DNA of 64,000 bases from Candidatus Fermentibacterota bacterium (GTDB lineage: Bacteria > JAFGKV01), in NCBI GenBank assembly GCA_016928395.1, contig JAFGKV010000238.1, forward strand, positions 11,708 through 75,707. Reading direction: 5' to 3'. Numbering within the stretch: the stretch's first letter is position 1; every line of letters begins with the position of its first letter. The translations under genes were made by a program, and so were the position numbers. The notes under the pieces were generated by a model. That model ran no database searches and was not told the DNA's origin. It saw only the letters and a program-made list of their open reading frames with translations. This document shows, piece after piece, positions 884 to 64,000 of the stretch.

Positions 884-948
884 AGGGTTTCTTGATTGAC
901 CATTGTGTGGCATGTGCCGGGGAAACTCGCCCCGGAAGGAGCGCATCC

Positions 949-2265: not shown

Positions 2266-2269
2266 ATTC

Positions 2270-27815: not shown

Positions 27816-30800
27816 CTACTCCTGCACTACGTAATCCTGCTCACCTACGGTCGGCGAGGCGACTGATTCGTTGGCCGCCGCATCCACTGCGGTGACTGCA
27901 TAGAAGTAGTTCAGATTCGGATCTCCGATGCCTTCCGTCACGGGAAAGGTCGTGCCGGATGTCGTCGCCAGCGGCGTGAGCCCGACGACGTCGAAGTAGG
28001 CAGTTGCGCTGCGGTAGATACGATATCCGGTTACGCCCACATTGTCGGTGGCGGGTGCCCATGAAAGGGTGCCCGCGGCATCTAGGCCGGTCCACGCAGG
28101 GGCGGTGGGCGCCTGGAGGTCTCCGCTGCCACCCCTCAGCCATGCCAGCGACTGTGCAATGACGCCACCGATAGTATTGTCGCCCGCACCCGTCGTGCTG
28201 AACGCCTCTAAGGCCGTGGCGAAGAAGATGACGCGGTAGGTAGCATCCCCGGTTGCCGGGTACCGAATCACCGTAGACTTCCCATTGTTGGCCATGCGAA
28301 ACACCGTTGCCGCGGACGGGTCGGGGCCTACCGTGTCGGGGTAATCTGAGAGGTCGCTAGGGCAGGTGATTGTGACCTGGAGCCCATCGCTGATGGGATC
28401 TCCCGGCACACCCTGTACGCTGGTTAAACCGCTTACATTCGTCTGGAATGATGCCACATGAAGATGCTGGGAGGTGAATGAGTCTCCCGCATACGACGAG
28501 AGGTAGTTCTCGGCAGAGAACAGCAGCGCGCCTCCATTGTCCAGATAGGCAGCCAGGTCGGTGCGGTCTTGCCCATTGCAGGAGCTTTGGTTCTGATCAC
28601 CAGCAGCCCAGAGGACGACCTGATACTGCATGAGATTGAGGAGCCCCGGCGATCCTGCCGAGTACCATAGCCATTGATCGTACGTCTCACCAAGTCCATT
28701 CAGCGCCTGCACGATGCGTCCCTCGTGGGCTTCATCGTCGGTGTCGACGAAGAGGAGAGGCTTCTGGCCCACGCACACGGTGAGCGACGCGGTCGCTACA
28801 TAGTCTCCCGCTGCGGACAGATCCAACGTGAATGTTACCAGGTGCGCCAGTGGTGTTGACGGGGAGAGCTCAACCTCGAAGGGGACCGTGGGGCCAGCGG
28901 CCGACGAGGGCGCGAGGTCGGGGTACCCTGCGTTGGGGTTCATGATGGTGGTGAACCCGTCAGCCTCGGACAGAGTGGCACTGACATTCCAGGCAGTGCC
29001 ATTACCATTGTTCTTGACGGACGGGATGATCTGTACGGTCTCACCGGCATCCGGCTTGCCATTGCCGTTACCGGAGACCTCGACCACGGAGAATCCGTCG
29101 AGGTCAAGTACCGGTGCATTCACCAAGAACGAGCGATACGAATCCCATGCGTTCGCCCCGGACGTAGCATGGATCAGAACGGAAACACCCTGGCGATCAG
29201 GGCAGTTGCCTCCCACGGAGAAGACATAGTCGCCCGGCGACCAGACTTCCGCGCCTGCTGCCATGTCACCGAAGCTCTGTGTGCTCTGCGTGAACTGGAC
29301 ATAGGGCGACGCGGTACTGGCGACGGCGGCTACCCCGGGCGCAGGATCGACTCCCACGTTCTTGAGCTGCACACCAAACTCGATGGTCTCACCGAGTTCT
29401 ATCACACCATCACCGTTGCCAAAACTGGCGCCAGCCATGTCATCATCCACGGAATGCGCGATGGCGACCACATACGGGCCCGAGGGCGAGATGACTTCGA
29501 CGGTGCCGTGGTGTTCCAGGTAGTCGTGGGCACTTACGTAGAGGTCCATCGGTCCTGGAGTCTGAGGTGGCGTGTCGAACTCGACAATGGCGGTTCCCGA
29601 GCCGTCGGTGATGGCACTGCCGAGAAGCACGCCATCGCGGGAGAAGGCGACGCGGGCTCCCGCAACACCGGGCACCGAGACCGTGAAGGTCGCCTCCCCG
29701 ATTACGTAGGCTGCCGCATGATTGACGACCATGGTGGTAGGCTGCGCGGTCCAAATATCGAGGAGCGGATCGCCTAACACGTTCAGTTCGTAGTAGCACC
29801 AGCGATTCTGCTCGAACCCAATGTAAGGAATATTGTCTTCCTTTGAATCCTGGTTGGCCTCGGCGATGTTGGTGATGCCTTCACCGAACAGCGCATCGAA
29901 GAACTGCCGGTCATAGTACTGGCTGGAACCATTGGTGCTGCTGTGGGCGCCCCACCCGTAGCGGGAGCAGGAGATGTTGGCCACCGCACCGTGGGCGAGC
30001 TCGAACGCGATACGCTCATTGATGCAGTCGGATGTGTAGCCGCCCGAGGTGGTCCGGTTGTCGAACGAGCCGCAGTAGCAGCCCTGACTGTAGGTGATGT
30101 AGAACGAGTGGTTCACGCCATTGTTCGTGAAGTTCGCGTCGGTCAGGTCGGAGTTGTAGAGCCTCATGTAGTACGTGACATCGGCGTGACCGAGATGGTT
30201 CACGAGGTGGACACCGTTGTTGAGCAGCGGCCTGAGCTGGCTCATGGCATTCCACGTACCGAGGTCACGGTCATACAAGGTCGCCACGTCGAAATTCGGG
30301 GGGAACCCGACCGTGGTATACCCATGGGTCGAGGCGCCGAACTTGATCTCGTCCTTGTAGTCGCCGCCGTAGGTCGGGTCGCTCCACAGGAGTTCGCCGA
30401 CCATGAGTGCTTCGGTGCATTCGGAAACGATGGGGTTGGTTTGATAGGCAACCGTCTTGTTGTAGAAGTTGGTGAACTCGGTGGCATTGTCCCCGCACAC
30501 ACGCGCCACGTAGACTTCGGCCACCAGGTCTGATTCGAGGCTGTTCTCGCCCCAGAGCCCGTCGCCATCGGTGTTCCAGTTCCCGTCAAGCCCGGCGAAG
30601 TAGAGGTCGGCGGCAATGTCGTCGTCCTCGTAGCCCCATCCCGGATCGTTGTAGAGACCTCGGTGCGGAACGTTCTCGTTATCGCCGCCCAACATCACAT
30701 ACTGGATGCCGTTGTTCGTGTAGTAATCGATGATGCAGTTGCGGATCTTATCGGGGTTGTCCACACCGGTGTAGGCCGCATAGATGGACTCCACCGTCTC

Positions 30801-31547
30801 CACGGCGATGCGCCAGCCGCGGACGGTCTTGTAGTTGACATAGGAATTCAGGTTGGCCTGTTGGGCATTGTTCGTTACGATCAAGAGGTCGTAGGGTACG
30901 TCGCGGAGGGAACGCGCAGCCGGATAGGTCATCATCGCGGTAGGGTTGATCACCGCTCGCTCCACCCTGGCTCTGTCACGCTCCGTCCCGCGGTACATCG
31001 CGGCGAGCGCGTCGGCGGCTCTTGGGGTTGCCTCGGTGATGACCTGCACGGTCAGCCGTGGATAATACTGGAGTTCTCCCGTGGCCGGAGTATAGCTCAC
31101 GGGATGCAGGGTGAACACGCCAAGGCTGCATCCCATTTTGAATTCAGTTGAGGAGTTGGCCACCCGGTACGAGGGGAATGCGTCGCGGCTTCCGAGAAGG
31201 TCCGGTACCAGGGGCGTCGTTTCCCACGGGCCTTGATAGGAGAATGGATACTGCCGTTGAACGACCTCCACGGTATAGGCGGCGGGCAGGGAGATGGGCT
31301 CGGCTGATTCCACGTGCACGGACACGATCTCATGACCTGGCGGAAGCAGCGCCGTAATTCCCTGCACCGGAAGCCGGGGTTCGCCCGTCTGACCGATGCT
31401 CAGGCATCCTTGAATCTCAACGCGGTAGGCATCGCCGATCGGGGTGACCGTCGGTTCCTCGTAGTCAAACGAGAAGGTGAGCATGTCGGCATGGGAGATC
31501 GCCACCGAGGCGATGACCATGACAGCTGCGACCGTGAATCTGAACAT
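27816..31547 (-). CDS. C25 cysteine peptidase with propeptide, Ig-like domains and C-terminal Fn3-like domain
   Basis: Signal peptide; GEPRLP propeptide; YVMLGGD; catalytic NHLGH and SQGC; LNVLGDP; GNGDG..GE repeats; GGAGG RBS. Confidence 0.92.
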   Translation of the reverse strand: MFRFTVAAVMVIASVAISHADMLTFSFDYEEPTVTPIGDAYRVEIQGCLSIGQTGEPRLPVQGITALLPPGHEIVSVHVESAEPISLPAAYTVEVVQRQYPFSYQGPWETTPLVPDLLGSRDAFPSYRVANSSTEFKMGCSLGVFTLHPVSYTPATGELQYYPRLTVQVITEATPRAADALAAMYRGTERDRARVERAVINPTAMMTYPAARSLRDVPYDLLIVTNNAQQANLNSYVNYKTVRGWRIAVETVESIYAAYTGVDNPDKIRNCIIDYYTNNGIQYVMLGGDNENVPHRGLYNDPGWGYEDDDIAADLYFAGLDGNWNTDGDGLWGENSLESDLVAEVYVARVCGDNATEFTNFYNKTVAYQTNPIVSECTEALMVGELLWSDPTYGGDYKDEIKFGASTHGYTTVGFPPNFDVATLYDRDLGTWNAMSQLRPLLNNGVHLVNHLGHADVTYYMRLYNSDLTDANFTNNGVNHSFYITYSQGCYCGSFDNRTTSGGYTSDCINERIAFELAHGAVANISCSRYGWGAHSSTNGSSQYYDRQFFDALFGEGITNIAEANQDSKEDNIPYIGFEQNRWCYYELNVLGDPLLDIWTAQPTTMVVNHAAAYVIGEATFTVSVPGVAGARVAFSRDGVLLGSAITDGSGTAIVEFDTPPQTPGPMDLYVSAHDYLEHHGTVEVISPSGPYVVAIAHSVDDDMAGASFGNGDGVIELGETIEFGVQLKNVGVDPAPGVAAVASTASPYVQFTQSTQSFGDMAAGAEVWSPGDYVFSVGGNCPDRQGVSVLIHATSGANAWDSYRSFLVNAPVLDLDGFSVVEVSGNGNGKPDAGETVQIIPSVKNNGNGTAWNVSATLSEADGFTTIMNPNAGYPDLAPSSAAGPTVPFEVELSPSTPLAHLVTFTLDLSAAGDYVATASLTVCVGQKPLLFVDTDDEAHEGRIVQALNGLGETYDQWLWYSAGSPGLLNLMQYQVVLWAAGDQNQSSCNGQDRTDLAAYLDNGGALLFSAENYLSSYAGDSFTSQHLHVASFQTNVSGLTSVQGVPGDPISDGLQVTITCPSDLSDYPDTVGPDPSAATVFRMANNGKSTVIRYPATGDATYRVIFFATALEAFSTTGAGDNTIGGVIAQSLAWLRGGSGDLQAPTAPAWTGLDAAGTLSWAPATDNVGVTGYRIYRSATAYFDVVGLTPLATTSGTTFPVTEGIGDPNLNYFYAVTAVDAAANESVASPTVGEQDYVVQE

Positions 31548-31559
31548 TGGCTTTCCTCC

Positions 31560-33902
31560 CTATTCGGGTTGTGGAAGGGTGGCAGCGGGGGAACCGGAGG
31601 GAACGACCAGTTGATAGTCGTGTTCGCCCACCGTGGGCGAGGGCGCTGATTCGTTGATCGCAGCGTCGATGGCGGTGACACGGAATGAGTAGTTCGCCAA
31701 GGGATCACCGAGCGAGCCCGACACGTCGAATGAGGTCGACGGCGTGGTCGCCATGAGCAGAGACGGAGTGGGAGCGAAGTATGCTGCCGAGGATCGGTAG
31801 ACCCGATAGCCGGTTACACCCACATTGTCGGTGGCCGGCGACCAGGTGAGAAGGCCCGTCGTGCCCAGCGCGATGGAGGCCGGTGCGGACGGCGGTTCGG
31901 AATCGCCACCGCCGATGGTGATGGCACCCATGAAGGCTACTCCATTGTAGGCGGTGACCGTGACATTCAAGGCCCCGGCCGTGGCGGAGGGAATGGGAAG
32001 AGTCGCGTGGCCGACTCCGTCGGTGTACGCGACTGCATGCACCTCGCCGGCTTTGTACAAGCAGACAAGGGCGTCGGGGCATGGAGAGCCGCCCCTGGTC
32101 ACGGTACACGGCACCGACTGAGGCGTCCCAGCGGGGATTTCCGCGGGGAAGCTCGCCGCCAGCGGGGAGGGCGCCAATGTGTACATGAGTAGCGAAGGAT
32201 CACCGAGGATGTTGTACTGCTCGAAGTAACCCTTGGTGGCGTTGTTCGTCCCATACCCCTGCTTGTAGCGGAGTTTGCCCTCGAGAATGAACCCGCCAGT
32301 CCAGTTGTAGCCATCGTCAAACAGGGCATCCCACATGCGGCGCTGCAGATAGTCATCGTTCGGCCAGAAGGAGCTTACCGACGAGCCATATGCCACGACT
32401 GCGCCCTTACCCGGCCTTCGGATCCATCGTTCCATGTAGCAATCCTGGTCGCTGGTCCAGGCAAAGTTGCCGGTGAGGCAGGCGAAGCTCAGCACGATGG
32501 GGTACCTATCGAGGTTGTTGAGCTGGTCCACGTTCCAGCGGCTGAACGTCGGCCCTTGCCATCCCGTTTCCACGCCATGGCCTGAGTAGGTCACCATGGC
32601 GCGCCCGGTAGCTACTGCTGTAGCGATAGGTGTTCCTGTACCGTAGAACCCCCACAGCGAGTCACAGACCACGCCGTGGGCGCGGGCCTTGGCCATGCAG
32701 TAGGCGTGGGTGCCTTCGGTGACTCCGTGATAGTTCCAGTCATCGGAAGAGATGAAGTACTCCCGGCCAGTCCACAGGGAGTCGACGGCCCACGCTGTCT
32801 GCTCGTAGTCAACGGTCTTCTCGACCAGCCCCTGGATGTCGGCGATCGTCCTGAGTGAGAATCGGCCAAGGTAGAGATCCGGCACCCAGTCTGTTCCATC
32901 CACGCAGCTGTAGTTGAGATCGGTAGGGGGGTTCTGGTTGCCGGTGCCGTTCCATGCGGGAATCGTGTTGGAATCGCCGACCAGGAGCACGAACTCCGGG
33001 GGCGGATCCCATGTCCCATATGCGTTCTGAATGTAGTTCTTGATGGTGGTGGCAGTGGCGCCGCCCGGGATTTCGCTCAACCTGGTCAGCGTGGTGGGGT
33101 AGCCCTTGCGGGTCTTCCATTCGGCCAGAGGAACTACGGCATCATAGAGGGAGTCCACGACGATCGCAAGGTACCCTGCCGGGAGGGCAACCGTCTCCCG
33201 CGGGGGGGGATTCAGCAGAAGGCCGGCCGCGTGCTGCGCGAAGACGCTGTGCTGCAAGCGGTCTTCAGGCTGTTCCAAGGAAGCATCGAAGGAGATCCGG
33301 ACAACCGCCGACTCAATGGTTTCCAGGGTTGCATTGGTGGGATCGTAGCACACCGGGGAAAGCTCGATCATGGCCAATTGCATGCCTCGCATGCGTCCTA
33401 GCTGAGCAATCCGCGCGGTCCCCGGAGGCGCGGTCGGGGTGGCGTACGAGGCTTCGTCGAGAACCCACCCGTCATCCGGGGATGCTCCCGGAATCTTCGG
33501 CACCGGCCGCATCACCGGGGCCAGACGTTCGGCGCCCCATGCCCGCAGGTCGTGAGATCGACGCCCAGAAAACTCCACCGCGACCGTCACCGATCCGTCG
33601 GCGGGGATTCGAATGAACGCCCGGGCGACCGGAACCTCGGGCCCGCCCCATGTCTCGGGCTTCCCCATGTCCTCCATGACAAGGTGCGCATATCGTATGC
33701 CTTCTCTCGCGACAACCTGAGCTTTCAATGCGGGGGAGTCCCACCGAAATTCGAGATCCGTCACGCCGGAGCGGAGAAGATGCCACCCCGGCATTGTCGT
33801 CCCTTCTCGCACCAGGTAGACCTGAGCCGGCGCCACGGCCACGGTCGATGCAACGAAGAGCAGGCACAGGAACACCACCACTGAGAATGAACAACGTAGC
33901 AC
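31560..33902 (-). CDS. C25 cysteine peptidase with propeptide and C-terminal Fn3-like domain
   Basis: Signal peptide; WKTRKG, FVLLVGD, LGRFS; catalytic TYSGHG and SFAC; YNILGDP; GGAGGA RBS. Confidence 0.93.
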   Translation of the reverse strand: MLRCSFSVVVFLCLLFVASTVAVAPAQVYLVREGTTMPGWHLLRSGVTDLEFRWDSPALKAQVVAREGIRYAHLVMEDMGKPETWGGPEVPVARAFIRIPADGSVTVAVEFSGRRSHDLRAWGAERLAPVMRPVPKIPGASPDDGWVLDEASYATPTAPPGTARIAQLGRMRGMQLAMIELSPVCYDPTNATLETIESAVVRISFDASLEQPEDRLQHSVFAQHAAGLLLNPPPRETVALPAGYLAIVVDSLYDAVVPLAEWKTRKGYPTTLTRLSEIPGGATATTIKNYIQNAYGTWDPPPEFVLLVGDSNTIPAWNGTGNQNPPTDLNYSCVDGTDWVPDLYLGRFSLRTIADIQGLVEKTVDYEQTAWAVDSLWTGREYFISSDDWNYHGVTEGTHAYCMAKARAHGVVCDSLWGFYGTGTPIATAVATGRAMVTYSGHGVETGWQGPTFSRWNVDQLNNLDRYPIVLSFACLTGNFAWTSDQDCYMERWIRRPGKGAVVAYGSSVSSFWPNDDYLQRRMWDALFDDGYNWTGGFILEGKLRYKQGYGTNNATKGYFEQYNILGDPSLLMYTLAPSPLAASFPAEIPAGTPQSVPCTVTRGGSPCPDALVCLYKAGEVHAVAYTDGVGHATLPIPSATAGALNVTVTAYNGVAFMGAITIGGGDSEPPSAPASIALGTTGLLTWSPATDNVGVTGYRVYRSSAAYFAPTPSLLMATTPSTSFDVSGSLGDPLANYSFRVTAIDAAINESAPSPTVGEHDYQLVVPSGSPAATLPQPE

Positions 33903-50134: not shown

Positions 50135-50292
50135 GAGATGACTCCTTTCTTTCGACCCAATGTGGATCGCATTCCCAGGGGCGTCAAGCCGGGATTCGGT
50201 TGACTGAGCCTCCCTCCACAGGGACATTGGCAGCGTCGAGGATCATATTGATCCTCCAACGCCGGGATCGATCCCGGGCGGAGGTATTCCGA

Positions 50293-51438
50293 ATGCCCAG
50301 AGCTTCTGCACTGGAGCCGGCATCAAGCCAGTCACCGGACGCACAGTCCCAGGTCTCCGGGTGGGCGGAGCACCGGCACACGGTGGCCGAGATTCTGTCG
50401 GCATTGACCCAACCCGAAACCTATGCACTTTCGCGGAACCTGTACCTCCTGGTGGGTTTGCTGTGGGGATTGGCCGTCACCTCGGCGGCGTGGCTGCTGG
50501 CCGCGAGCCACCAGGGCTTCGGCGCGTCACCCCGAGGTGTGTACCACATGGTGGGGAGCCAACCTACGGCGCTGCTCATGCTGGTGTTTCCGGTGGCGTT
50601 CACTGTGTTTCTGGGAGCTTTGGGCTATCTGAAGCATCGTCGTGACCGGTACATAGCGGCATTGCTCCAGGAGCTGAACGTCAACGTGCAGCGTCTGGCC
50701 TCGGCGAATGAGGAACTGCGGGAGTTGGACCGCCTGAAGGAGGAGTTCACCAGCAATATCACCCACGAGCTCAGGACACCCCTAGTGACAATCAAGGGAT
50801 ACACAGAACTCCTGCTTGGCGGAGATCTGGGCGCTCTGGACGAAACGCAACAGCGTTCGCTCAGGGTGATAGCCAAGAATGTCGCCCGTCTCATCGAGCT
50901 GATCGATCAGATTCTTCTGTTCCGTCAGCATGGCGCCACACCGCTACCCAGACAGCTTCGACCTTTCTCTCTTGGCGACCTGCTCAACGAGGTGGGCGAG
51001 AACTTCCGGCCTCAGATCATGGAGAAGAGATTGGACTTTCGCGTGCAGTTACCAGATCAACCTGTCACGGTCGTCGCCGATCGCTCCAGGATCGAGCGGG
51101 TGTTCACGAATCTGTTGTCGAATGCCACGAAGTTCACTCCGAGAGAGGGGATGGTGGTTATAGCGGTGACGTCCCCACGGAATGGGCGAGTCGGCGTATC
51201 GGTGGTAGACAATGGTTGCGGGATACCCAAGGACGCGCAGAAGTATATCTTTGACCGCTACCGCCAGGCAAATGGATCCGTCCGCAGAAGGTTTGGAGGA
51301 ACTGGGCTCGGCCTGGCCATCGTCAAGCGAATCCTCCAGGCCCATGGCGTGGACATACGCGTTGAGAGTGACGTAGGCAAAGGGTCAACGTTCACCTTCG
51401 AGCTTCCCGTTCTGAGGTCCTCCAAGGGGCGGCACTGA
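50293..51438 (+). CDS. Membrane sensor histidine kinase
   Basis: Two TMs; THELRTPL H-box, NLLSNATKFT, DNGCGI, GTGLGL. Confidence 0.94.
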   Translation: MPRASALEPASSQSPDAQSQVSGWAEHRHTVAEILSALTQPETYALSRNLYLLVGLLWGLAVTSAAWLLAASHQGFGASPRGVYHMVGSQPTALLMLVFPVAFTVFLGALGYLKHRRDRYIAALLQELNVNVQRLASANEELRELDRLKEEFTSNITHELRTPLVTIKGYTELLLGGDLGALDETQQRSLRVIAKNVARLIELIDQILLFRQHGATPLPRQLRPFSLGDLLNEVGENFRPQIMEKRLDFRVQLPDQPVTVVADRSRIERVFTNLLSNATKFTPREGMVVIAVTSPRNGRVGVSVVDNGCGIPKDAQKYIFDRYRQANGSVRRRFGGTGLGLAIVKRILQAHGVDIRVESDVGKGSTFTFELPVLRSSKGRH

Positions 51439-51503
51439 CGAGGCGCCCCGGAGGGGGTTCGTATGCAGGCAATCATCCGCAATTCACAAAGGAGAATCTC
51501 AAC

Positions 51504-52253
51504 ATGAGCCCCATGAACGCATCAGTCACACCGACGATTCTGGCCATTGATGATGAAGAGGACATACTCGGCTTCCTGACTACTCTGTTCGGGACCAGAG
51601 GTTTCCGGGTGCTCACCGCTCTTGACGGAGAGCGTGGCTTCGAGTTGGCGCAGCGCGAGCATCCCAGCGTCGTGCTGTTGGACATAATGATGCCCGAGGT
51701 TGACGGCCATGAAGTCTGCAGGCGGCTCAAGGCCGATCCCGTCACTTCGCGCATCCCCGTGCTTATGCTGACCGCGATGAATCGGATCAAGGACATCGCT
51801 CAAGCGATAGATGAAGGTGCGGATGGTTTCATGGCCAAGCCATTCGAGAATCGGAGCCTCGTTGAGGTCGTGAGCCTGATGGTGACTCCAGGCGGCCAAC
51901 TCCCAGAGTTCTACATTGCGAAGAAGCCTGGTGCAGTCCCGCTTCGGAGGATCGAGGATGTCGAGAAGGGGCATCTTGTGGTCTGGCTCAACGTCACTGA
52001 GGCGGGCCCCGACTCCATCCTGGATGATGGCTCGATTCTGGAAGGTGCCTACTTGCTTACCATCTTCACCGAGGCCAGCGATCCCCGGCAGACGAGCACG
52101 ACAGCTCTGCTGGAGGTGGCAACCCCCGAGGCGCTGGGGGATGTGGTCAACCGCCTTGCCGCGCGGGGGGGCCAGGTGGTCAGTGCTCGCGTTTTTCGCG
52201 ACATCCTGGAAGTCCCCTTCTCAGCGCTGCCCCGGTCTGAACACAACGAGTAG
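51504..52253 (+). CDS. Response regulator (receiver plus unrecognised C-terminal domain)
   Basis: ILAIDDE, LLDIMMP, LTA, KPF. Confidence 0.92.
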   Translation: MSPMNASVTPTILAIDDEEDILGFLTTLFGTRGFRVLTALDGERGFELAQREHPSVVLLDIMMPEVDGHEVCRRLKADPVTSRIPVLMLTAMNRIKDIAQAIDEGADGFMAKPFENRSLVEVVSLMVTPGGQLPEFYIAKKPGAVPLRRIEDVEKGHLVVWLNVTEAGPDSILDDGSILEGAYLLTIFTEASDPRQTSTTALLEVATPEALGDVVNRLAARGGQVVSARVFRDILEVPFSALPRSEHNE

Positions 52254-52259
52254 GATGCC

Positions 52260-52697
52260 ATGCAATGGCGGCGGCACACGAGAGCGGAGACGAGAGACCT
52301 CAGGCAGCTTCGACCGCGGGATCCTCCGGCCTTCGATGGCGGTGAGTTCATCGCCGTAGACGGGCCGCACTGCGGTCTCAGGGCGCGACTGGGCAACGGT
52401 GCCACCAGCCTCGGGAGGAGCGATGACAACGGGATTGCCCTCACTCTGGATGCCGGCGTGTCCCGACGTCATGCGTTGGTGGAATGGGTCGGGCAGCGTC
52501 TCTATCTTCGCGATTTGAGCTCCACCAACGGCACCCGGGTCAACGGTGTTCTGGTGCAGGGGAAAGTTGGTCTCTCCCATCTGGACGTCGTGTCGCTGGG
52601 GGGAACCTCATTACAGATCGTATTCGATGATCCCGGCGTGGTGCCTGTGTACGAGCTGCCCGATTCCGACGAAACCCCGACCGAGCCTCCCGTGTAG
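52260..52697 (+). CDS. FHA domain protein
   Basis: LGRS, VSRRHA, DLSSTNGTRVNG. Confidence 0.92.
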   Translation: MQWRRHTRAETRDLRQLRPRDPPAFDGGEFIAVDGPHCGLRARLGNGATSLGRSDDNGIALTLDAGVSRRHALVEWVGQRLYLRDLSSTNGTRVNGVLVQGKVGLSHLDVVSLGGTSLQIVFDDPGVVPVYELPDSDETPTEPPV

Positions 52698-52768
52698 CTT
52701 AGGTCAGCACGCGTAACCGGGTCGTAACGCCCCATTCTCCTCCACTTTTGGTGAGGCCGCTCCGCGCC

Positions 52769-55700
52769 ATGAATCATTGGCGGATACTACATCTGTTCAT
52801 AGCCCTTTGTGGCGTTGCGTCTCCCCGCGGGGCAGCCGTCGGCGTGGGGACGCTGTGGCTGGGATCACCTGCCGGGCCTGCCCACCTGGCCTCGCCGCAC
52901 CCGCCGCATCTTGTTCTCGGTGCCGATTCCTTGGCCTTGCTTCGTATGGATAAGGCCGTATGGAAGAAGTATGCGACTGCTCTTGAGTTGCCATGGCTGG
53001 ATGCAGAGGCACCCACGCTCTTTCGCCTGAATTCCGACCAACTCTCCTCCCATGCCACGGCAATGGCCCGCAGGGATGTCAGTCGCCTGTGGCACGAGGC
53101 GGTTGTGCGCAAGAAGACCGCTTCCGAGAGAGAAGGGGGTGGTTTGCTCAAGGATATCGAGTTGCCCGTGAAGCTGCCAGGCCTTCTTGGGCATGTGGTG
53201 TCGGGCAAGGCGGGGTTGAGGGTTTCGGGGCGGCAGAGGCTTGAGCTTGGCGGCAGATCTTCCTACCAGGTGGGAGGGCTTGCCGATCCAAATCGGAGCA
53301 ATTCGAAATTCCCCCAGCTTCACATGGAGCAGCAGTTGCGGGTGAGCCTCAAGGGGAATGTGGGCGACAAGATCAGTGTGCTTGTGGATCACGACAGTGG
53401 CCAGCGATCCAGCGACAAGAACAAGATCCGGATACGATACGAGGGTACCGAAGACGAGATCCTCCGTGAGGTCGAGGCGGGCAACACAAGCCTGTCTCTC
53501 GGCAGCGGGCCGGAATTCATTACCCCCAGCTTCAGCCACCAGGGACTCTTCGGCATTCGGGCCGGAGGCCAGGTGGGGCCTGCGACGCTCACAGTCATTG
53601 CCTCCAAGGAGGAGAGCCAGAAGCAGACCACCAGCTTCACCGGCCAAGCCAAGCTCGATACGATCCAGATAAACGACACGCAATACGTCCATAATCAGTT
53701 CTACTCCGTCATGATGATGCCGGGCGCCTCGTCTCTTGTGATCGACCCCACCGACAGCGTGACCAGTATTACGGTGTACCTCGACAACCAGGTCGACAAT
53801 GCGGAGCGCATTCAATCCGGCACGAAGGCTATATGCTATCTGGACCCGCGGGCTCCCTCCGAAGAAGAGACGTATCGCGGCGTTTTCACTGTGCTGCGGG
53901 AGGCTGGCGACTACGATTTTTCCTCGTCCACGGGCATCCTCGAATTGAAGCAGCCGCTGATGGAGAACAGCGTGCTCGCCGTGGCGTACACCAGCCGGAA
54001 TCAGGGCGTGGTAGGGGGAGCTGCTATTGGGGATTCGGTGAGCCTGAAGTTGGTGAAACCGCCCAACATGAATCCCGAGTCGAAGACGTGGGCCTATGAG
54101 TTGCGCAATGTGTACTACCTGGGCTCCCGATCCATTGACACCAGCAAGTTCAGACTCACCATCAAGCGGCGGGTAGCTTCGGGAACAGATCTGGAGATCT
54201 ACAACGGGAACACCTACCTGAATCTTCTGGGTCTAGACAACGACCGAAACGGCATGGTTGATCTCGACCGATCCGTTTTGGATCCTGATCGTGGCATTCT
54301 GGTGTTTCCCAATCCCGAACCGTTCAATCAGCCAGCCGTGCTGGACACGGTGAATCCCACGATTTACCGCGAGCAGTACAGCAGACTCAAGCCCGAACAC
54401 AACCTCTACTACCTCGAAGCCAGCTATGAACTGCTGCAGTCGACGTATGCGCTCAGCCCTTTCATGATCGAGAATTCCGCGGTCGTCAGGGTTAACGGGC
54501 GGACCATGGTTCGCGGGCAGGATTATGACATCGAGTTCTTCGAGTTGCGCTTCCGGGCGGGAGTCATCACCGGACCGGACGACAATGTTGTCATTTCGTA
54601 CGAGGTGAAGCCCCTGTTCGCCTCGGGCCAGAAGACGCTGGTGGGTGCCCGCTTCGAACTCCCGACCTCCCGGGTCACCAAGGTGGGCGCCACCTGGATG
54701 TACCAGAGCGAGGGCGGACCGCGCACGACTCTGCTGCCCAGGTTCGGCGAGGAGCCGAGGCGTTCGATGGTGGCCGGGTTGGATGGGCGTGTGGAGTTCA
54801 AGCCGCAGTGGCTGACAGATGCGGCCAACTTCCTGCCCTTCGTGGCGACAGATGCTCCGTCGACTATTACGCTCAGTGCCGAACTGGCCTACAGCATGCC
54901 CAACCCCAATATCCGGGGGGGCGCCACGGTGGACGATATGGAGGGCAATCGCGAGGCTACCCCCCTGCCATTGGCATTTCGCCGGTGGTCTCTGGGCAGC
55001 CTGCCCTTCGGAGTCAACGCCGCAGGGCAGGATACACTGTTCTACTGGCACAATTTCGGCTATAGCGATCCATCCAAGCTGTCCAAGGGCGACATCTATC
55101 CCGACAGCGTGCTCACCGACGATCGGGAGCGGGATGAGCTGGTGGAGGTCTTGAACCTGCGGGTTCACCCCTCGGCTGATGCTCCCGGTGGGACATGGGC
55201 GGCCATCCAGACTCTGGTACAAGCGGGAGGTGCGGATTTGACCGAGCGGGAGTACCTTGAGGTCTTGGTCCGGGGCGACACGGGGAGGCTGCACATCGAT
55301 CTCGGGGCGGTCTCCGAGGACCAGGCCAGGAAGGGGACTGGAGGCAACGGGGTATTGGACACCGAGGATCAGAATCCCCGAGACGGAGAGTTCTTTGCTC
55401 TCGAGGAGGACACCGGATTCGATGGCCTGCGCAATGCCGATGAACCCGGGGAGGGGCATGACCCCGCAGGAGACGATTACGCCTACGATTCGGCGCGTCC
55501 TCAGGACTACACCAAGGTCAACGGGGAAGAAGGCAACGATGTGTGGGACACCGAGGACCTCAATAGGAACGGCCAGATAGACGTGCGAGAGGCCTTCTTC
55601 TCATTCGATCTTCCCCTGGATTCCTACAGCGAACTCATCGAGGCAGAGTACCAGAACGGGTGGCGCTTGTTCCGGATTCCGCTGGGAAGCGACCAGGTGG

Positions 55701-58381
55701 CAAAGGTCGGCAATGCCACGTGGTCCAGTGTGGAGTACTGCCGGGTCTGGGCGGAAGGCCTCGGCCAGGAAGACGAGTCATGGATCCAGATCGCGAATCT
55801 GGAGGTCGTGGGGAGTACATGGCGGTCCACCGGCGTCGAAGCGCCGGACGGGCGGATCGACGATTCGGAGGTATTCCGGGTCAAGACCAGGAACAACAAA
55901 GACGATGCTCTGTATGTGCCGCCCTTTGACCCGGGCGAAGACGAGCGAACTGGGTATGTGCGGCGGGAGCAGTCGCTGGTGCTTTCGTTCGAGAGTATCG
56001 CCCCGGGGCATTGGGGCAGCGCATATCAGTCATTCTACCGCGACCAAGACTACTCGGGCTATCGCGGCATCGCAGTCTGGATTCGACCCCATGAGGTTCG
56101 GGATCAGGCGGGTATGGTACTGGATCCCTTGGTCTGGCTGCGGCTGGGCGCCAATGAGACCGACTACTACGAGATTCGGCTGCGGGCCGAGGCGGATCAA
56201 TGGCGCAAGGTCGAGATTGACATGGATCAGCTCACCCGGACGAAGGTCGATGGCGTCATCGAAACGCCCGAGGGCTATCTGCTCAGAGTAGTGGGGGCTC
56301 CCTCGATTACTCGCATTCGTCGGGGTGTAGTGGGGGTTGAGAACCCGTCAGGACGGCAGATGACAGGTGAGGTCTGGATCGATGAGCTCCATTTGGTCAG
56401 GGTCAAACGCGAGCAAGGAGCTGCGAGGCGGACCTCTGCCAAGGTGCAGATCGCCAATTTGGCTACCGTGGATGTGGACTACCGCAATCTGGACGCGACC
56501 TTCACCCGCCTGGACCAGCGGGGAAGCACGGGCGCGACCAGCAGCAGTACCACGGGCCAGGTTTCCGGCACTCTCTCGTTGGACCAGTTCTTTCCTGCCC
56601 GCTGGGGGATCCGGCTCCCTGTCGCGGCATCGCAATCCTCCCGTCGCTCAACGCCTCGATTGGCCACGGGAAGCGACGTGACGCTCACCAGCGACGAGCG
56701 GCGACGGGAGCGGACCGTTGATCAGAGCCGGAGGATCAGCATGAATCTGAGCAAGGCGAATCCCTCCAGGCATGCCATCATGCGGGCCACGCTGGACAAG
56801 ATCCGAGTCTCCGCCTCGTCCAGCAGGACGAACAATGCCGGCCCTGCCCGGGCCGACAGCAGCACCTCACATCGATTCTCCGTGGATTGGGGGTGGACAG
56901 CTTCTGCGAAGCAGCCGTTGCGGATTCCCTTGCTGGGGCTTGGGATCAACTACCTGCCCACGTCGGTGTCTCTTGGAGTGACCGGACAACAGACCGACCC
57001 CCGCGTGTGGGTCGTCAGCGGGGATTCACTGGTCTCTTCGCCCACGCGCTTCAGCCGCGATGTGGGCGAGAAGGCATCGGTGGGCTTTCAGCCGGTGAGG
57101 GCACTGGATGCGACCTACTCCTTCAACGCTACGCGCGATTTAACCTACATGTCGTCTAGCAGGGGAGAGCATCTGCTGGACGAGCAGCTACGGTACACTG
57201 ACCGGGTGCTGCCCTTTTGGCGAATCCTGGAGGCGCGCGAGACCAGGAGAAACCAACAATTGGGCCTTCGGCTGACCCAGCGGATCGCGGCATGGCTTGA
57301 CCCGAGCCTGACCTACGATGCGACATACAGCGAGAACCATGATCCCGGGCTCGCCGCGGCGCAGCCAGATTCCCAGGATGTGCGGGACGCGTCCACCAAC
57401 ACCAGCGCCAAGGCTCGGGCTACCTTCTCGCCTTCCCAGTTTCTCTCGTGGGTTTCCCGGATGCTGGGCAAGACGAAGTGGATGGAGGATGTCGCACGCA
57501 TCGGCGGGAAACTGCAGGCTATCCAGGGCAGCGTCGGTACCACCGTCTCGTCCAGCTACCGTGAACTCACCGAAAGACCCCCGCTGGGATACCAGTTTGG
57601 AGTGTGGCAGTCGCTGGAGGGGTCCGTACCTCATGACCTTTCCCGGCGGAACTCGTGGGATCTCAGCGGCGGAATCCAGATTCTGAAGGACCTGCGCGCC
57701 ACTGCACGAACAAGCTCCGAACGCACCCGGCGGGCATACAGCGGTGCCGAGACCGGGACGACCAGTTCCACGTTCCCGGATGTTGACGTCAGCTGGACGG
57801 GTCTCCACACAGTGGGCCCGCTCAAGGGAAGGGTGGCCAGCTCCACCGTTCGGTCAGCCCTGCGGATCACCACCGGCACCAGCGGCAAGTATGAGGGTGG
57901 AATCTTCAGTAAAGACGCAACTACCCGCCGGGAGGACTACTCGCCGCTTCTGAGCGTGAGCCTGACCCTCAAGAACCGGCTGACCTTCACGCTGGGAGAT
58001 ACGTATTCCAAGGATGAACGCGTGGATCTGCTACAGGCCATTCCCTCCACACGCACCTCTACGTCTCACCGCAGCAATGCCGCGGTGCAGTACGCCTTCA
58101 GCGCACCCCAGGGTTTGACCCTGCCCGTAGTGGGACAAATGAAGTTCAATTCGGATCTTAGATTGTCACTGGATATATCGCGGGATCGCCGTCTGGACAG
58201 AATAGGGGGGGCAGCACCCACCACCGACACGTCGACCTGGTCGGTGCGCCCAGGGGCCTCCTATGATTTCGGGGTGGTGGACTCCGGCGTGGAGATCGAA
58301 GTCGGCCAGACGAGCAACAGCAAACTCAACCAGACGAGGCGTGAGATTGGGCTGAGAGTATGGGTGAACTTTCCTTTCTGA
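52769..58381 (+). CDS. sprA: SprA-like type IX secretion outer-membrane translocon
   Basis: GNVGDKI..DHDS, YEGTEDEIL..EAGNTSL, GLFGI, LRNVYYLG, DTEDLNRNG, GEVWIDEL, beta-rich C-terminus ending in F; about 1870 aa. Confidence 0.9.
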   Translation: MNHWRILHLFIALCGVASPRGAAVGVGTLWLGSPAGPAHLASPHPPHLVLGADSLALLRMDKAVWKKYATALELPWLDAEAPTLFRLNSDQLSSHATAMARRDVSRLWHEAVVRKKTASEREGGGLLKDIELPVKLPGLLGHVVSGKAGLRVSGRQRLELGGRSSYQVGGLADPNRSNSKFPQLHMEQQLRVSLKGNVGDKISVLVDHDSGQRSSDKNKIRIRYEGTEDEILREVEAGNTSLSLGSGPEFITPSFSHQGLFGIRAGGQVGPATLTVIASKEESQKQTTSFTGQAKLDTIQINDTQYVHNQFYSVMMMPGASSLVIDPTDSVTSITVYLDNQVDNAERIQSGTKAICYLDPRAPSEEETYRGVFTVLREAGDYDFSSSTGILELKQPLMENSVLAVAYTSRNQGVVGGAAIGDSVSLKLVKPPNMNPESKTWAYELRNVYYLGSRSIDTSKFRLTIKRRVASGTDLEIYNGNTYLNLLGLDNDRNGMVDLDRSVLDPDRGILVFPNPEPFNQPAVLDTVNPTIYREQYSRLKPEHNLYYLEASYELLQSTYALSPFMIENSAVVRVNGRTMVRGQDYDIEFFELRFRAGVITGPDDNVVISYEVKPLFASGQKTLVGARFELPTSRVTKVGATWMYQSEGGPRTTLLPRFGEEPRRSMVAGLDGRVEFKPQWLTDAANFLPFVATDAPSTITLSAELAYSMPNPNIRGGATVDDMEGNREATPLPLAFRRWSLGSLPFGVNAAGQDTLFYWHNFGYSDPSKLSKGDIYPDSVLTDDRERDELVEVLNLRVHPSADAPGGTWAAIQTLVQAGGADLTEREYLEVLVRGDTGRLHIDLGAVSEDQARKGTGGNGVLDTEDQNPRDGEFFALEEDTGFDGLRNADEPGEGHDPAGDDYAYDSARPQDYTKVNGEEGNDVWDTEDLNRNGQIDVREAFFSFDLPLDSYSELIEAEYQNGWRLFRIPLGSDQVAKVGNATWSSVEYCRVWAEGLGQEDESWIQIANLEVVGSTWRSTGVEAPDGRIDDSEVFRVKTRNNKDDALYVPPFDPGEDERTGYVRREQSLVLSFESIAPGHWGSAYQSFYRDQDYSGYRGIAVWIRPHEVRDQAGMVLDPLVWLRLGANETDYYEIRLRAEADQWRKVEIDMDQLTRTKVDGVIETPEGYLLRVVGAPSITRIRRGVVGVENPSGRQMTGEVWIDELHLVRVKREQGAARRTSAKVQIANLATVDVDYRNLDATFTRLDQRGSTGATSSSTTGQVSGTLSLDQFFPARWGIRLPVAASQSSRRSTPRLATGSDVTLTSDERRRERTVDQSRRISMNLSKANPSRHAIMRATLDKIRVSASSSRTNNAGPARADSSTSHRFSVDWGWTASAKQPLRIPLLGLGINYLPTSVSLGVTGQQTDPRVWVVSGDSLVSSPTRFSRDVGEKASVGFQPVRALDATYSFNATRDLTYMSSSRGEHLLDEQLRYTDRVLPFWRILEARETRRNQQLGLRLTQRIAAWLDPSLTYDATYSENHDPGLAAAQPDSQDVRDASTNTSAKARATFSPSQFLSWVSRMLGKTKWMEDVARIGGKLQAIQGSVGTTVSSSYRELTERPPLGYQFGVWQSLEGSVPHDLSRRNSWDLSGGIQILKDLRATARTSSERTRRAYSGAETGTTSSTFPDVDVSWTGLHTVGPLKGRVASSTVRSALRITTGTSGKYEGGIFSKDATTRREDYSPLLSVSLTLKNRLTFTLGDTYSKDERVDLLQAIPSTRTSTSHRSNAAVQYAFSAPQGLTLPVVGQMKFNSDLRLSLDISRDRRLDRIGGAAPTTDTSTWSVRPGASYDFGVVDSGVEIEVGQTSNSKLNQTRREIGLRVWVNFPF

Positions 58382-61576: not shown

Positions 61577-62251
61577 ATGATGGTGAAGAGGAACGGTGGT
61601 ATCTCTCTCATTGATGTTATGATCGTGCTCGCGGTGATAGCCGTGATAGCCGTGTTGCTTGTGCCCAAGTACAATGAGAAGAAAGCACGGGAACTCAGAG
61701 CCGAGATGATCACGGAAGCTCGGGAAGCCATGCTCGAGGCAAAGCTCGCCCAAGAACTCCATTTTGAGCGGCATGGCCGGTTCACCGACGATCTCAATGA
61801 GCTGGCTGTCTTCAACCCCGCATTGCGTGATCTGAGGTGTCCTTTCGACAAGGCACCGTACGCCATCGCCTACGACTCCACACGGTTTGCGATCTCCTGT
61901 TCCGTGCCGGATCCAGGCGCCATCGAGGGCGGCGTTCCATCGTGGCTGGCGGAGCCGGGCGCCGAGGGACTCCGCGCCTCATTGATCATGCGATCCAGGG
62001 ATCGCATGGCGAAGGTGGCCGCCGCGCTGGATTCATTCAAGGCAATCACCGGATCGTATACCGCCGATCTGGATACTCTGGAATCCCAGACGCCGGGTGT
62101 TAAGAACCTCTTGTGCCCCCTCATGATGAAGCGGTTCTCCATTATCCTGTCTGACTCGCTTGGATACGAAGTGACATCCCATCTGGACGAGGTTGGACGG
62201 ATCGTGGATGGCACGCCGGATTACCCACCCCTACCGACCCCCAAGACCTGA
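61577..62251 (+). CDS. Type IV pilin-like protein with duplicated head domain
   Basis: AAGGAG RBS; KRNGG|ISLIDVMIVLAVIAVIAVLLVP prepilin leader; next to pilD; upstream TTGACA-N17-CATCTT. Confidence 0.82.
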   Translation: MMVKRNGGISLIDVMIVLAVIAVIAVLLVPKYNEKKARELRAEMITEAREAMLEAKLAQELHFERHGRFTDDLNELAVFNPALRDLRCPFDKAPYAIAYDSTRFAISCSVPDPGAIEGGVPSWLAEPGAEGLRASLIMRSRDRMAKVAAALDSFKAITGSYTADLDTLESQTPGVKNLLCPLMMKRFSIILSDSLGYEVTSHLDEVGRIVDGTPDYPPLPTPKT

Positions 62252-62353: not shown

Positions 62354-63130
62354 TTGTGCTTCACGGCTAGTCTCACGCTGCCCGTGTTCGCGCTAGGAGC
62401 GTGCATCGGCAGTTTTCTGAACGTGGTGGTCTACCGGTTGCCGCGGGGCGAGTCAGTGGCATGGCCGGGTTCGCGATGCCCCTGGTGCACGGCGCCGCTG
62501 GCGGCGTTGGACAACATACCGCTCTTCAGCTTCCTGCTGCTTTCCGCCCGGTGCAGGTACTGTGGCGCGCCCATAGCCTTGCGCTACCCGGTGGTGGAAG
62601 GCATTGGCGGTCTGCTGGCAGTGTGTACATGTATCCTGTGGGGTTTTACACCATCAGGCCTCATGTGGGCGGTGTTTCTTGCCACTTTGGTGGCGGTGGC
62701 GCTGATCGACCTCGACACTTTCGTGATTCCAGATTCTCTGTGCCTCCTTCTTGTTGGCTGCGGGCTCGTGCTGGCCCATGTGTCTCCCGATGAGGGATCA
62801 TTGTCTTCTCGGCTTCTCGCGGGGGCGCTGAGTGCGGGGGGTGTGTGGGCGTTGAGTGTGATGACTCGTGGAGGCATGGGCATGGGCGATGCGAAGCTCC
62901 TTGGCGCCATGGGAATCGCACTGGGGCCGCGCGGAGTGGCGTTCGCATTCGGTCTCGCCGTGCTGTTGGGGGCCATCTCAGGTGTATGGCTGCTGGCTCT
63001 CAAACGTAAGCGGAGCGGAGATCCCGTTCCGTTTGGGCCATTTCTCGTCCTGGGCGCACTGGTGGCTGCACTGGGCGGGAACCAGATAGCTGAATGGTAT
63101 TCGAGGGCACTCCTCGGTATCTTGGATTGA
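62354..63130 (+). CDS. pilD: Prepilin peptidase (A24)
   Basis: GSFLNVVVYRLP, SRCPWC..RCRYC, IDLD, MGMGDAKL, PFGPFL. Confidence 0.95.
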   Translation: MCFTASLTLPVFALGACIGSFLNVVVYRLPRGESVAWPGSRCPWCTAPLAALDNIPLFSFLLLSARCRYCGAPIALRYPVVEGIGGLLAVCTCILWGFTPSGLMWAVFLATLVAVALIDLDTFVIPDSLCLLLVGCGLVLAHVSPDEGSLSSRLLAGALSAGGVWALSVMTRGGMGMGDAKLLGAMGIALGPRGVAFAFGLAVLLGAISGVWLLALKRKRSGDPVPFGPFLVLGALVAALGGNQIAEWYSRALLGILD

Positions 63131-63231: not shown

Positions 63232-64000
63232 ATGCCTGGGAAACAGCCGAATGCCTTTGTTGATATTCTGGTTGCCGAAGGCCTGCTTTCCAAGAAGCGA
63301 GCCCGGGACATCATCAAGTCTTCCTCACGGGTGGGGAAGTCATCCATCGAACTAGCGATCGAGGAAGGCGCCGTTGCCCTTGATGCCGTGGATCGGGTTG
63401 CAGAGAACATGGGTCTTAGCTGCCCTGATCTTGATACCTCGATGGTTGACTGGCTCGCAGTGAATCGGGTCACTCTGGCCGAGGCCCAGAGGATTCCTAT
63501 GGCGCCGCTGGTGGGCGACGGGAAAGAGCTGCGAGTCGCTGTCGTCGACCCATTCGATGCGGACCTTGTCGGTCTGCTCCGGGATCAGTTTGGCTGTCCC
63601 GTAACCCTCATGTTTGCACATCCCGCCCGAATCCGGGCCGTTCTTGCACAAGGCCCTCCCGCCGAAGGCGAGGGAGATCTGGCTGCTGTTGCTTCCTTCG
63701 CCGACTTCGTGGTGGATGAAGGCCAACGCCGTGTCGTTGAGGAAGTGCAAAACTTCATTCGCACCGATACGGAATGGCGACGTCCTGTGCTGCTGGTAGG
63801 TCCAGGTTGCGTGGGCAAGACCCATTTGCTCAACGCTGCTCGGCAGGAGTTGGGCAGCCTGCACCCGAGTCGCACCGTGCTTTTCATTGAAGGCCGGCAT
63901 GCTAAAGATAAAACCGCTCCCTTTGGCACCCATCTCTCTCCTGGTGGGTTGATCCTGGATGATCTGGATTCCCTCGCCGGAGATGCGCGGCTGGAAGAGG
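63232..64000 (+). CDS. GspE/PilB N-terminal (MshEN-like) domain fused to DnaA/Hda-like AAA+ ATPase (3' truncated)
   Basis: Translated by hand, absent from ORF track: DILVAEGLLS..LRVAVVDPFD, then SFADFVV..PVLLVGPGCVGKTHLLNA..LILDDLDSLAG; upstream TTGACG-N17-TACTCT. Confidence 0.8.
   Translation, partial: MPGKQPNAFVDILVAEGLLSKKRARDIIKSSSRVGKSSIELAIEEGAVALDAVDRVAENMGLSCPDLDTSMVDWLAVNRVTLAEAQRIPMAPLVGDGKELRVAVVDPFDADLVGLLRDQFGCPVTLMFAHPARIRAVLAQGPPAEGEGDLAAVASFADFVVDEGQRRVVEEVQNFIRTDTEWRRPVLLVGPGCVGKTHLLNAARQELGSLHPSRTVLFIEGRHAKDKTAPFGTHLSPGGLILDDLDSLAGDARLEE

Follow-up and report, generated by a model that had tools for sequence, protein, structure and literature searches.

In a 64,000-nucleotide stretch of DNA from a Candidatus Fermentibacterota bacterium (hereafter the window; positions 11708–75707 of contig C299, JAFGKV010000238.1, in genome G000, assembly GCA_016928395.1), the last gene, here called X1, encodes a fusion of the MshEN domain found at the N-terminus of PilB and MshE with AAA+ modules of the type that forms domain III of DnaA. 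Three translationally coupled paralogs, X2, X3 and X4, follow it downstream on the same strand. With a probability of roughly one half, X1–X4 are pilus-associated, partly cyclic di-GMP (c-di-GMP)-sensing AAA+ switch or scaffold subunits, because they form a pilB-linked operon, share an MshEN head, have no DNA-reading parts of DnaA and have, in most members, lost the residues by which DnaA contacts single-stranded DNA (ssDNA). The site of action of these fusion proteins is most likely the pilus machine rather than replication. The sequence-only reading that was followed up here, made from the letters of the window, had noticed the fusion in the 5' part of X1; a second DnaA-type module (aa 739–896) and the three paralogs lay beyond its view.

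The open frame without a stop that had been noted at the end of the window is real. It starts with an ATG at 63232 on the + strand, has no stop before the window ends at 64000 and, on a contig that runs 8.6 kb past this point, closes to give a protein of 983 aa (940–3891 of locus L002, corresponding to window coordinates 63232–66183). X1 consists of a decayed MshEN domain, a decayed DnaA-domain-III module (X1a), a conserved helical middle and an intact second DnaA-domain-III module (X1b). Within the window lie the following parts, among them both Walker motifs at the positions first proposed for them:

63232..64000, + strand: 5' part of X1 (256 of 983 codons), a MshEN / DnaA(III) / helical / DnaA(III) protein
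63232..63651, + strand: decayed MshEN (PilB/MshE N-terminal) domain, aa 1–140, with the Pfam MshEN match at aa 61–140
63694..64000, + strand: start of X1a, DnaA-domain-III-type AAA+ module 1, aa ~155–350 (Bac_DnaA, hhalign)
63799..63822, + strand: Walker A of X1a, GPGCVGKT, with K196 invariant in 7/7 orthologs
63949..63966, + strand: Walker B of X1a, LILDDL, read from the sequence

Both halves of the proposed fusion were borne out by profile searches. MshEN scored 31.5 bits in the 256-aa fragment (E = 1.7e-7, cut-off 23.1, aa 61–140) and 30.7 bits in full-length X1, in agreement with the PilB/GspE-type N-terminus read from the window. For the ATPase part, which had been assigned to DnaA domain III rather than to PilB, Bac_DnaA was the top P-loop family in the fragment, just below threshold (22.1 versus 23 bits), and reached 142.3 bits over two stretches of the full-length protein, most strongly at aa 739–896. 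A genome-wide family search placed X1a in Bac_DnaA at 42.7 bits (E = 2e-10, positions 6–155), and a seven-ortholog X1a profile aligned with the DnaA-domain-III module alignment at an hhalign probability of 99.5% (E = 6.9e-23, 195 columns). T2SSE (PF00437), Bac_DnaA_C and DnaA_N were all absent from the full protein in Pfam searches; DUF4398 matched aa 395–457. A PilB-type ATPase identity of X1 is ruled out, since there is no T2SSE domain and the ATPase part scores as Bac_DnaA.

An AlphaFold2 model of X1 based on a seven-row alignment had a mean predicted local distance difference test (pLDDT) score of 74.8, with ~85 for MshEN, ~80 for module 1, ~90 for the helical middle and mostly 80–88 for module 2, where it dropped to 55–67 at both ends. 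In a Foldseek search with the whole model, for which it is not given which of the two modules aligned, the top PDB matches were structures of DnaA domain III (8btg, 8bv3, 2z4r and 1l8q; E 1e-13 to 1e-10), ahead of Hda.

Compared with these DnaA structures, the modules of the X proteins are DnaA-type by sequence and fold, with both Walker motifs, box VII and sensor II at corresponding places; the first module of X4 (X4a) matched domain III of Bacillus subtilis DnaA (8bv3) at E = 1.3e-81. Unlike DnaA, the X proteins are without domains I, II and IV, miss the TIGR00362 cut-off and have lost the ssDNA contacts save in X4. X1 and X4 are moreover two-module chains, and the X genes lie in a pilus cluster of a genome with a separate canonical dnaA. 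A DnaA-like AAA+ protein without domain IV also resembles Hda/HdaA. However, X4a matched Hda (5x06) only at E = 4e-6, against 1e-81 to DnaA, and the X proteins are large and multi-domain. Hda identity is ruled out by a best TIGR03420 score of 129 against a cut-off of 194.8, and the X proteins had no match to the pattern used for the Hda-type N-terminal clamp-binding motif. On the side of the MshE, PilB and PilF MshEN domains (5htl, 5tsg, 5zfr), the N-terminal 150 aa of X4 matched PilB (5tsg) at E = 8e-30 and MshE (5htl) at E = 6e-19, but MshEN of the X proteins precedes a DnaA-type AAA+ module and not a T2SSE ATPase, and the motifs of X1 and X2 are degenerate.

The fusion is not a chimera of the assembly, because orthologs recur in independent assemblies. 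Neither of the two outcomes that had been named beforehand as fatal to it, an ATPase part scoring as PilB/T2SSE and a chimeric MshEN/DnaA junction, was therefore found. X1 has five full-length orthologs in other assemblies (50–69% identity, ~980 aa, identical Pfam set) and one partial ortholog, within a total of 8 proteins at E ≤ 1e-3 that includes the query and one weak match. In the full-length orthologs, long stretches of the helical middle and of module 2 are invariant, and by this conservation X1 is clearly under purifying selection. A search of 1.84 billion representatives added one distant X1-like protein, P0253 (921 aa, MshEN and two modules), and two X4-like proteins, P0254, which is the X4 of the sister genome G002 introduced below, and P0255. 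Homologs of X3 bearing both MshEN and Bac_DnaA numbered 14. In a scan of genome contigs with X3, one locus was informative, on a G002 contig, and the remaining loci matched the AAA+ part only. A scan of metagenome contigs with X4 residues 1–420 kept 80 loci, all confined to the AAA+ part and none starting before residue 95, and gave no added synteny; these loci would behave as canonical DnaAs that match via shared motifs.

As the sequence-only reading had asked to be checked, the genome has a canonical dnaA and a pilB apart from X1–X4. Among its 14 Bac_DnaA matches, just one frame also has a strong Bac_DnaA_C domain, a canonical DnaA of 470 aa on contig C126. Against the TIGR00362 cut-off of 343.9, this DnaA scored 464.4, X4 residues 1–420 scored 341.1, X3 244.9 and X1 243.4. 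The three T2SSE loci of the genome all lie outside X1–X4, and one of them is the PilB of the pilus cluster. The canonical dnaA occupies 8181–9590 of C126 on the minus strand (locus L201, C126:7186–12402), flanked by a GGDEF diguanylate cyclase gene and, at its opposite end, by yidD, yidC and jag; the four neighbours scanned did not include dnaN. Weak Bac_DnaA_C matches of 36–40 bits occur in frames of 177–452 aa at C84:274–471, C79:181–381 and C119:2643–2828, three contigs for which no Bac_DnaA match was reported.

The link to the pilus comes from gene order. The array and the genes directly upstream of it are:

61577..62251, + strand: pilin-like gene, 224 aa, with a hydrophobic N-terminal segment after a Gly and without a Pfam match
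62354..63130, + strand: pilD, prepilin peptidase (A24_N_bact 105.8 bits, Peptidase_A24 59.4 bits)
X2, same strand as X1: 422 aa, Pfam match to MshEN only
X3, same strand as X1: 423 aa, MshEN and Bac_DnaA
X4, same strand as X1: at least 1308 aa, interrupted by the contig end, with MshEN, Bac_DnaA (227 bits) and a long helical region

X1 had been placed beside pilin and pilD genes; pilD stands, and the supposed pilin is pilin-like at its N-terminus only, with an ortholog at the equivalent place in the sister genome G002 (same family as G000, 98% complete). X1 and X2 overlap by 16 nt, X2 and X3 by 1 nt, and X4 begins on the codon after the X3 stop. None of the four contains DnaA domain I, domain IV (Bac_DnaA_C) or T2SSE by Pfam, and the two DnaA(III) modules in each of X1 and X4 are joined by 400–1300 aa of helical repeats. 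In G002, the order is beta-helix protein, pilin-like gene, pilD, X1 (983 aa), X2 (436 aa), X3 (409 aa) and then X4 (1993 aa), in which another Bac_DnaA module, X4b, lies near the C-terminus. After these come a TonB_C protein and PilB (MshEN and T2SSE, 478 bits); an unknown gene is next, and PilT, PilC, PilS, a PilT-like gene and PilR complete the series. On C155, a short contig of G000, the TonB_C gene likewise precedes pilB, and we infer that the order of G002 holds in this genome as well, across a contig break.

Consistent with this arrangement, a single-gene form of the fusion stands next to pilB in a second phylum. In the distant genome G038, a 711-aa protein with MshEN and Bac_DnaA is encoded directly before PilB. 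It has 215 homologs at E ≤ 1e-3, mostly from Candidatus Hydrogenedentes; the second phylum is probably Hydrogenedentota. Among the matches listed, 120/120 carry both Pfam domains. Their annotation labels include ‘DnaA/Hda family protein’, ‘ATP-binding protein’ and ‘chromosomal replication initiator protein DnaA’. We tested the linkage in 61 genomes from 13 families by matching fusion coordinates with the single ortholog of the G038-linked PilB, which was present in 58/61 genomes at E ≤ 1e-190, with the following outcome:

51/61 genomes: fusion directly upstream of the PilB ortholog, on the same strand
4/61 genomes: fusion/PilB locus cut by a contig edge
2/61 genomes: unresolved, with no fusion row listed
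1/61 genomes: MshEN gene alone at the place upstream of PilB
3/61 genomes: PilB without a match at E ≤ 1e-190

In the loci that were fetched, 19 of which had been selected for adjacency, the fusion was followed by PilB in 20/21, at a gap of 15–280 nt, and a PilT-like gene came next in 19 of those 20. The order from fusion to pilB is kept in both lineages and would otherwise be hard to keep, which argues for selection for co-expression. In the tree of AAA+ modules, the other phylum's clade meets X1b and X4a in an unresolved fork, and the fusions of the two lineages may share one origin or have separate ones.

The c-di-GMP-binding motifs differ in state among the four proteins. We scored the 24-residue motif given in the main text of Wang et al. 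2016 (PMC5013675) out of 11 for each of the two copies per protein and used the NCBIfam model NF053729 (cut-off 38 bits):

X4: 9/11 + 9/11 (G002 ortholog 10/11 + 9/11), NF053729 62.1 bits
X3: 9/11 + 6/11 (G002 ortholog 10/11 + 6/11), NF053729 46.8 bits
X2: 4/11 + 7/11 (G002 ortholog 5/11 + 7/11), NF053729 38.5 bits
X1: 5/11 + 3/11 in aa 8–60, degenerate, NF053729 no match

The RLG residues had correctly been read as not conserved in X1. The distant X1-like protein P0253 scored 10/11 + 10/11, which suggests that the motif loss in X1 is secondary.

ATPase motifs were read by aligning the modules with the DnaA of this genome. X4a, X4b (taken from G002) and X1b retain both Walker motifs together with the arginines of box VII and sensor II. 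X3 and the product of a fifth MshEN-DnaA(III) gene of this genome, on contig C108, keep the ATP site and have Gly and Gln, respectively, at the arginine finger position. In X1a, Walker A is intact, Ala replaces the finger, and most orthologs have DG instead of the DD of Walker B. X2 is without either Walker motif, whereas all other modules retain both; its C-terminal half matched the DnaA-domain-III profile at a probability of 10% only (P = 0.003, 85 columns; reversed control P = 0.32), and a MAFFT alignment suggests that this half descends from a DnaA module. Arginine fingers are retained only in X4a, X4b, X1b and one receiver-domain form (on contig C20) described below.

For ssDNA binding, the B. 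subtilis residues named in the main text of Pelliciari et al. 2023 (PMC10721633) were mapped via an ungapped alignment; they include the initiator-specific motif (ISM) residues that contact the DnaA-trio, E183, N187, I190, I193, R202, K222 and E228. The genome's own DnaA retains this set save the conservative changes I190V and E223D. Lys222 and several other contacts are lost in X1a, X1b, X2, X3, C108, all six receiver forms and the G038 form. X4 differs: X4a retains 7/8 positions and X4b 5/8 with the remaining three conservatively changed, and the independent ortholog P0255 has 7/8 and 6/8 in its two modules. The finger position is basic in all six X4-type modules, with R in five and K in the second module of P0255.

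On the reading that X1–X4 are pilus-associated switch or scaffold subunits, MshEN would take the place of DnaA domains I–II, tethering the protein and, in X4 and X3 with their intact motifs, sensing c-di-GMP, and the DnaA-domain-III module would supply ATP-dependent self-association. Because fingers and finger-less ATP sites are complementary and the genes are translationally coupled, the array suggests a hetero-oligomer in which the finger-bearing modules (X4a, X4b, X1b) may complete the ATP sites of finger-less X3 and X1a. X1 would be a decayed, mainly structural member with the most decayed sensor of the four; its first module probably binds ATP and is unlikely to hydrolyze it, and X1b would be its complete C-terminal module. 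The assembly would control the timing or the site of activity of PilB, PilT or the pilus platform. Domain make-up, motif states, gene order and coupling, the conserved pilB linkage and the lack of the DNA-binding parts of DnaA are observations, whereas c-di-GMP binding, hetero-oligomerization, contact with PilB or the platform and an effect on piliation are inferred. A complex prediction for G002 X3 (409 aa) with G002 PilB (residues 8–597) scored 0.00 in a run without controls and is no evidence either way.

In this role, the X proteins are proposed to work like known accessory regulators of PilB. FimX (PMC5595344), MglA-SgmX-FrzS-SopA (PMC7519303, PMC11580455) and PATAN response regulators (10.1101/2021.06.11.447907), which are c-di-GMP-dependent or polar regulators, likewise link the pilus extension motor to a signal; they are unrelated to the X proteins in sequence and domains, and none is known to use an initiator-clade AAA+ protein. 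The main text of PMC5013675 names an ATPase, a glycosyltransferase and others as partners of MshEN and does not contain the word ‘DnaA’. In the literature searched, which had most subscription journals and supplements outside its coverage, we found no published description of an MshEN-DnaA fusion.

Several observations weigh against a dedicated pilus role. Physical contact of the X proteins with PilB or another pilus protein is putative: the support for the earlier proposal that X1 is tethered to the pilus platform or acts as a regulator is synteny, in the G002 cluster and in 51/61 genomes of the other phylum. This adjacency to pilB could in part be left over from the event that supplied MshEN, a duplication of the 5' end of pilB. 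The AlphaFold2 model of X1 is confident in its domains and gives no domain arrangement (predicted template modelling score 0.31), and X1–X4 were absent from searches of G001, a genome of the same genus that is 82% complete. The ssDNA-contact set and the finger are retained in both modules of 3/3 X4 orthologs, and a pure pilus scaffold would not need them. Finally, the gene on C108 is not beside pilus genes, and the modules closest to its own belong to response regulators whose partners are histidine kinases and not pili; DnaA(III) may therefore be a general signalling output.

This last explanation, in which DnaA(III) is a lineage-specific effector placed under MshEN, receiver or tetratricopeptide repeat (TPR) domains and pilB adjacency merely marks the origin of MshEN, is unlikely in our view, although the wider use of the module speaks for it. 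The genome encodes six receiver-DnaA(III) (REC) response regulators without domain IV by Pfam:

C20, L006:1048–2850, + strand
C218, L007:619–2436, − strand
C78, L008:556–2415, − strand
C126, L010:613–2418, − strand
C150, L009:1006–2223, + strand
C311, L012:1015–2526, + strand

Those on C218, C78 and C126 (3/6) adjoin histidine kinases, and G001 and G002 together contain eight full-length homologs. A quick IQ-TREE search (LG+G4) with 92 of 96 module rows, leaving out 4 decayed X1a modules, joined X3, C108 and all six REC modules in one clade (Shimodaira–Hasegawa-like approximate likelihood ratio test (SH-aLRT) 97), and hence a single AAA+ lineage has swapped its sensor domain. The fusions of the other phylum formed one group (SH-aLRT 99), as did the canonical DnaAs (SH-aLRT 95), with all paralog modules outside the latter. 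C108 is unlinked to pili, and TPR and zinc-ribbon forms exist elsewhere. Against a general signalling output stand the order from fusion to pilB in 51/61 genomes over 13 families, which recurs in the lineage of X1–X4, and the pilT-like gene that comes next in 19/20 loci.

A role in replication control, in which the DnaA(III) modules would cap or poison the DnaA oligomer or stimulate hydrolysis as Hda does, so that initiation answers c-di-GMP or surface state, seems to us distinctly unlikely. X4a scores higher against Bac_DnaA than the genome's own DnaA does (232 versus 223 bits) and lies very close to 8bv3; X4a and X4b retain the arginine finger and ISM contacts; finger-less modules with intact ATP sites would suit chain termination; and the canonical dnaA adjoins a GGDEF gene. 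However, the X genes are linked to pilB and not to dnaA, dnaN or an origin, the Hda cut-off is unreached and the clamp-binding motif pattern unmatched, none of the paralog modules groups with the canonical DnaAs, and X1 has lost the ISM contacts. The link of X1 to replication or DNA uptake that the sequence-only reading had considered is not supported: X1 is without domains I and IV, misses both the DnaA and Hda equivalog cut-offs and has lost ssDNA contacts in both of its modules. Such a link is conceivable for X4 only, whose two initiator modules are complete in their equipment and are separated by ~1300 residues of helical repeats. That X4, with the X1–X4 set, is a c-di-GMP-gated DnaA-like filament former that engages ssDNA or DnaA while tethered at the pilus motor is a long shot; if true, it would be the first machine in which type IV pilus activity, whether for sensing surfaces or for taking up DNA, is directly coupled to a nucleoprotein assembly of the initiator type.

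We consider it very unlikely that X4, with the others helping, binds ssDNA at the pilus in the manner of DnaA domain III, for example DNA taken up via type IV pili. The contact residues kept in both modules of X4 and P0255 and the location of the genes within the pilus cluster are in favour of this, but the residues are retained in X4 only and are missing from the widespread single-gene form of G038, and no competence genes were seen in the pilus cluster (G002 locus and window neighbours). According to the main text of PMC10721633, ISM residues of DnaA matter for both ssDNA binding and protomer contacts, and their retention may serve the latter instead. That X1 is a decaying, functionless duplicate, as the loss of its c-di-GMP motif and module 1 finger and the Walker B DG in most orthologs might suggest, is highly improbable given its intact frame of 983 aa, five full-length orthologs 50–69% identical with long invariant stretches, a fully motif-bearing module 2 and translational coupling to X2.

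To our knowledge, the DnaA AAA+ core has been regarded as serving replication only, with Hda as its sole known offshoot. Here, this core is reused without DNA-reading domains under at least three sensors, c-di-GMP/MshEN, phospho-receiver and TPR, and in whole phyla of uncultured bacteria one MshEN-DnaA(III) class is tied to the gene for the pilus extension motor. If X1–X4 are indeed pilus switch or scaffold subunits, the type IV pili of these lineages possess an accessory that depends on ATP and c-di-GMP and is as yet unstudied, and gating of PilB would be testable with few proteins. No publication on the four-gene array, the two-module forms or the parallel REC-DnaA(III) regulators was found in the literature searched. 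In metagenome-assembled genomes, the label ‘chromosomal replication initiator protein DnaA’ on many fusions can lead origin prediction astray and distort counts of dnaA copies.

Four of the REC forms are ~600 aa long and have an additional C-terminal domain of ~217 aa (e.g., L006:2200–2850, + strand) that had no Pfam match. Its predicted fold (pLDDT 89.7, predicted template modelling score 0.86) resembles only small GTPases (EngB/YsxC, Ras/Rab, MglA; TM 0.45–0.57, E from 3e-4), in agreement with a language-model lead. By eye, no GxxxxGK[ST] P-loop is present, so the domain may be a pseudo-GTPase. Further ‘DnaA/Hda family’ proteins of 585–693 aa (P0020–P0131), several labelled Gemmatimonadota, had two tandem DnaA(III) modules in 14/14 tested. 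At one Gemmatimonadaceae locus (L099, 21.5 kb; gene 9998–11785), an Arf-like GTPase and a TPR+Roadblock protein are encoded upstream and a DUF4388+TPR protein downstream, with further TPR proteins; from this single locus, we take the gene set to resemble the MglA/MglB module, through which Myxococcus controls the polarity of its pili. Some very large proteins combine numerous TPR repeats, or zinc ribbons, with a single Bac_DnaA and no Bac_DnaA_C (L036:1–5445 of G032, P0283; P0267, P0269, P0284).

In the helical spacer of G002 X4 (L033:9942–15923, aa ~430–1690), a short ‘GAxxYA’-type motif has 6 matches spaced by ~80 aa or multiples. X1 has one such copy, outside its DUF4398 match (aa 395–457), and Pfam found no DUF4398 in X4 of either G000 (E ≤ 0.01) or G002 (E ≤ 1e-4). 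The TonB_C protein ahead of pilB carries this domain at its C-terminus and is 460–484 aa long in the two genomes (L205:1–1377 on C155; L033:15978–17432 in G002, between X4 and pilB).

Further upstream, the window holds genes for SprA, the translocon of the type IX secretion system (T9SS), for a beta-helix protein and for three proteins with histidine kinase, receiver and FHA domains, respectively; no pilMNOPQ were among the upstream window genes scanned with Pfam. The histidine kinase, stand-alone receiver and FHA genes are consecutive at 50200–52694, just upstream of the SprA-like gene, whose product (1877 aa; SprA_N, 72 bits) directly precedes the beta-helix protein. The beta-helix protein has a T9SS-type C-terminus as judged by eye, and two C25 (gingipain-family) peptidases are encoded further upstream of SprA; the regions concerned are window 52748–58378 and 27819–33902.

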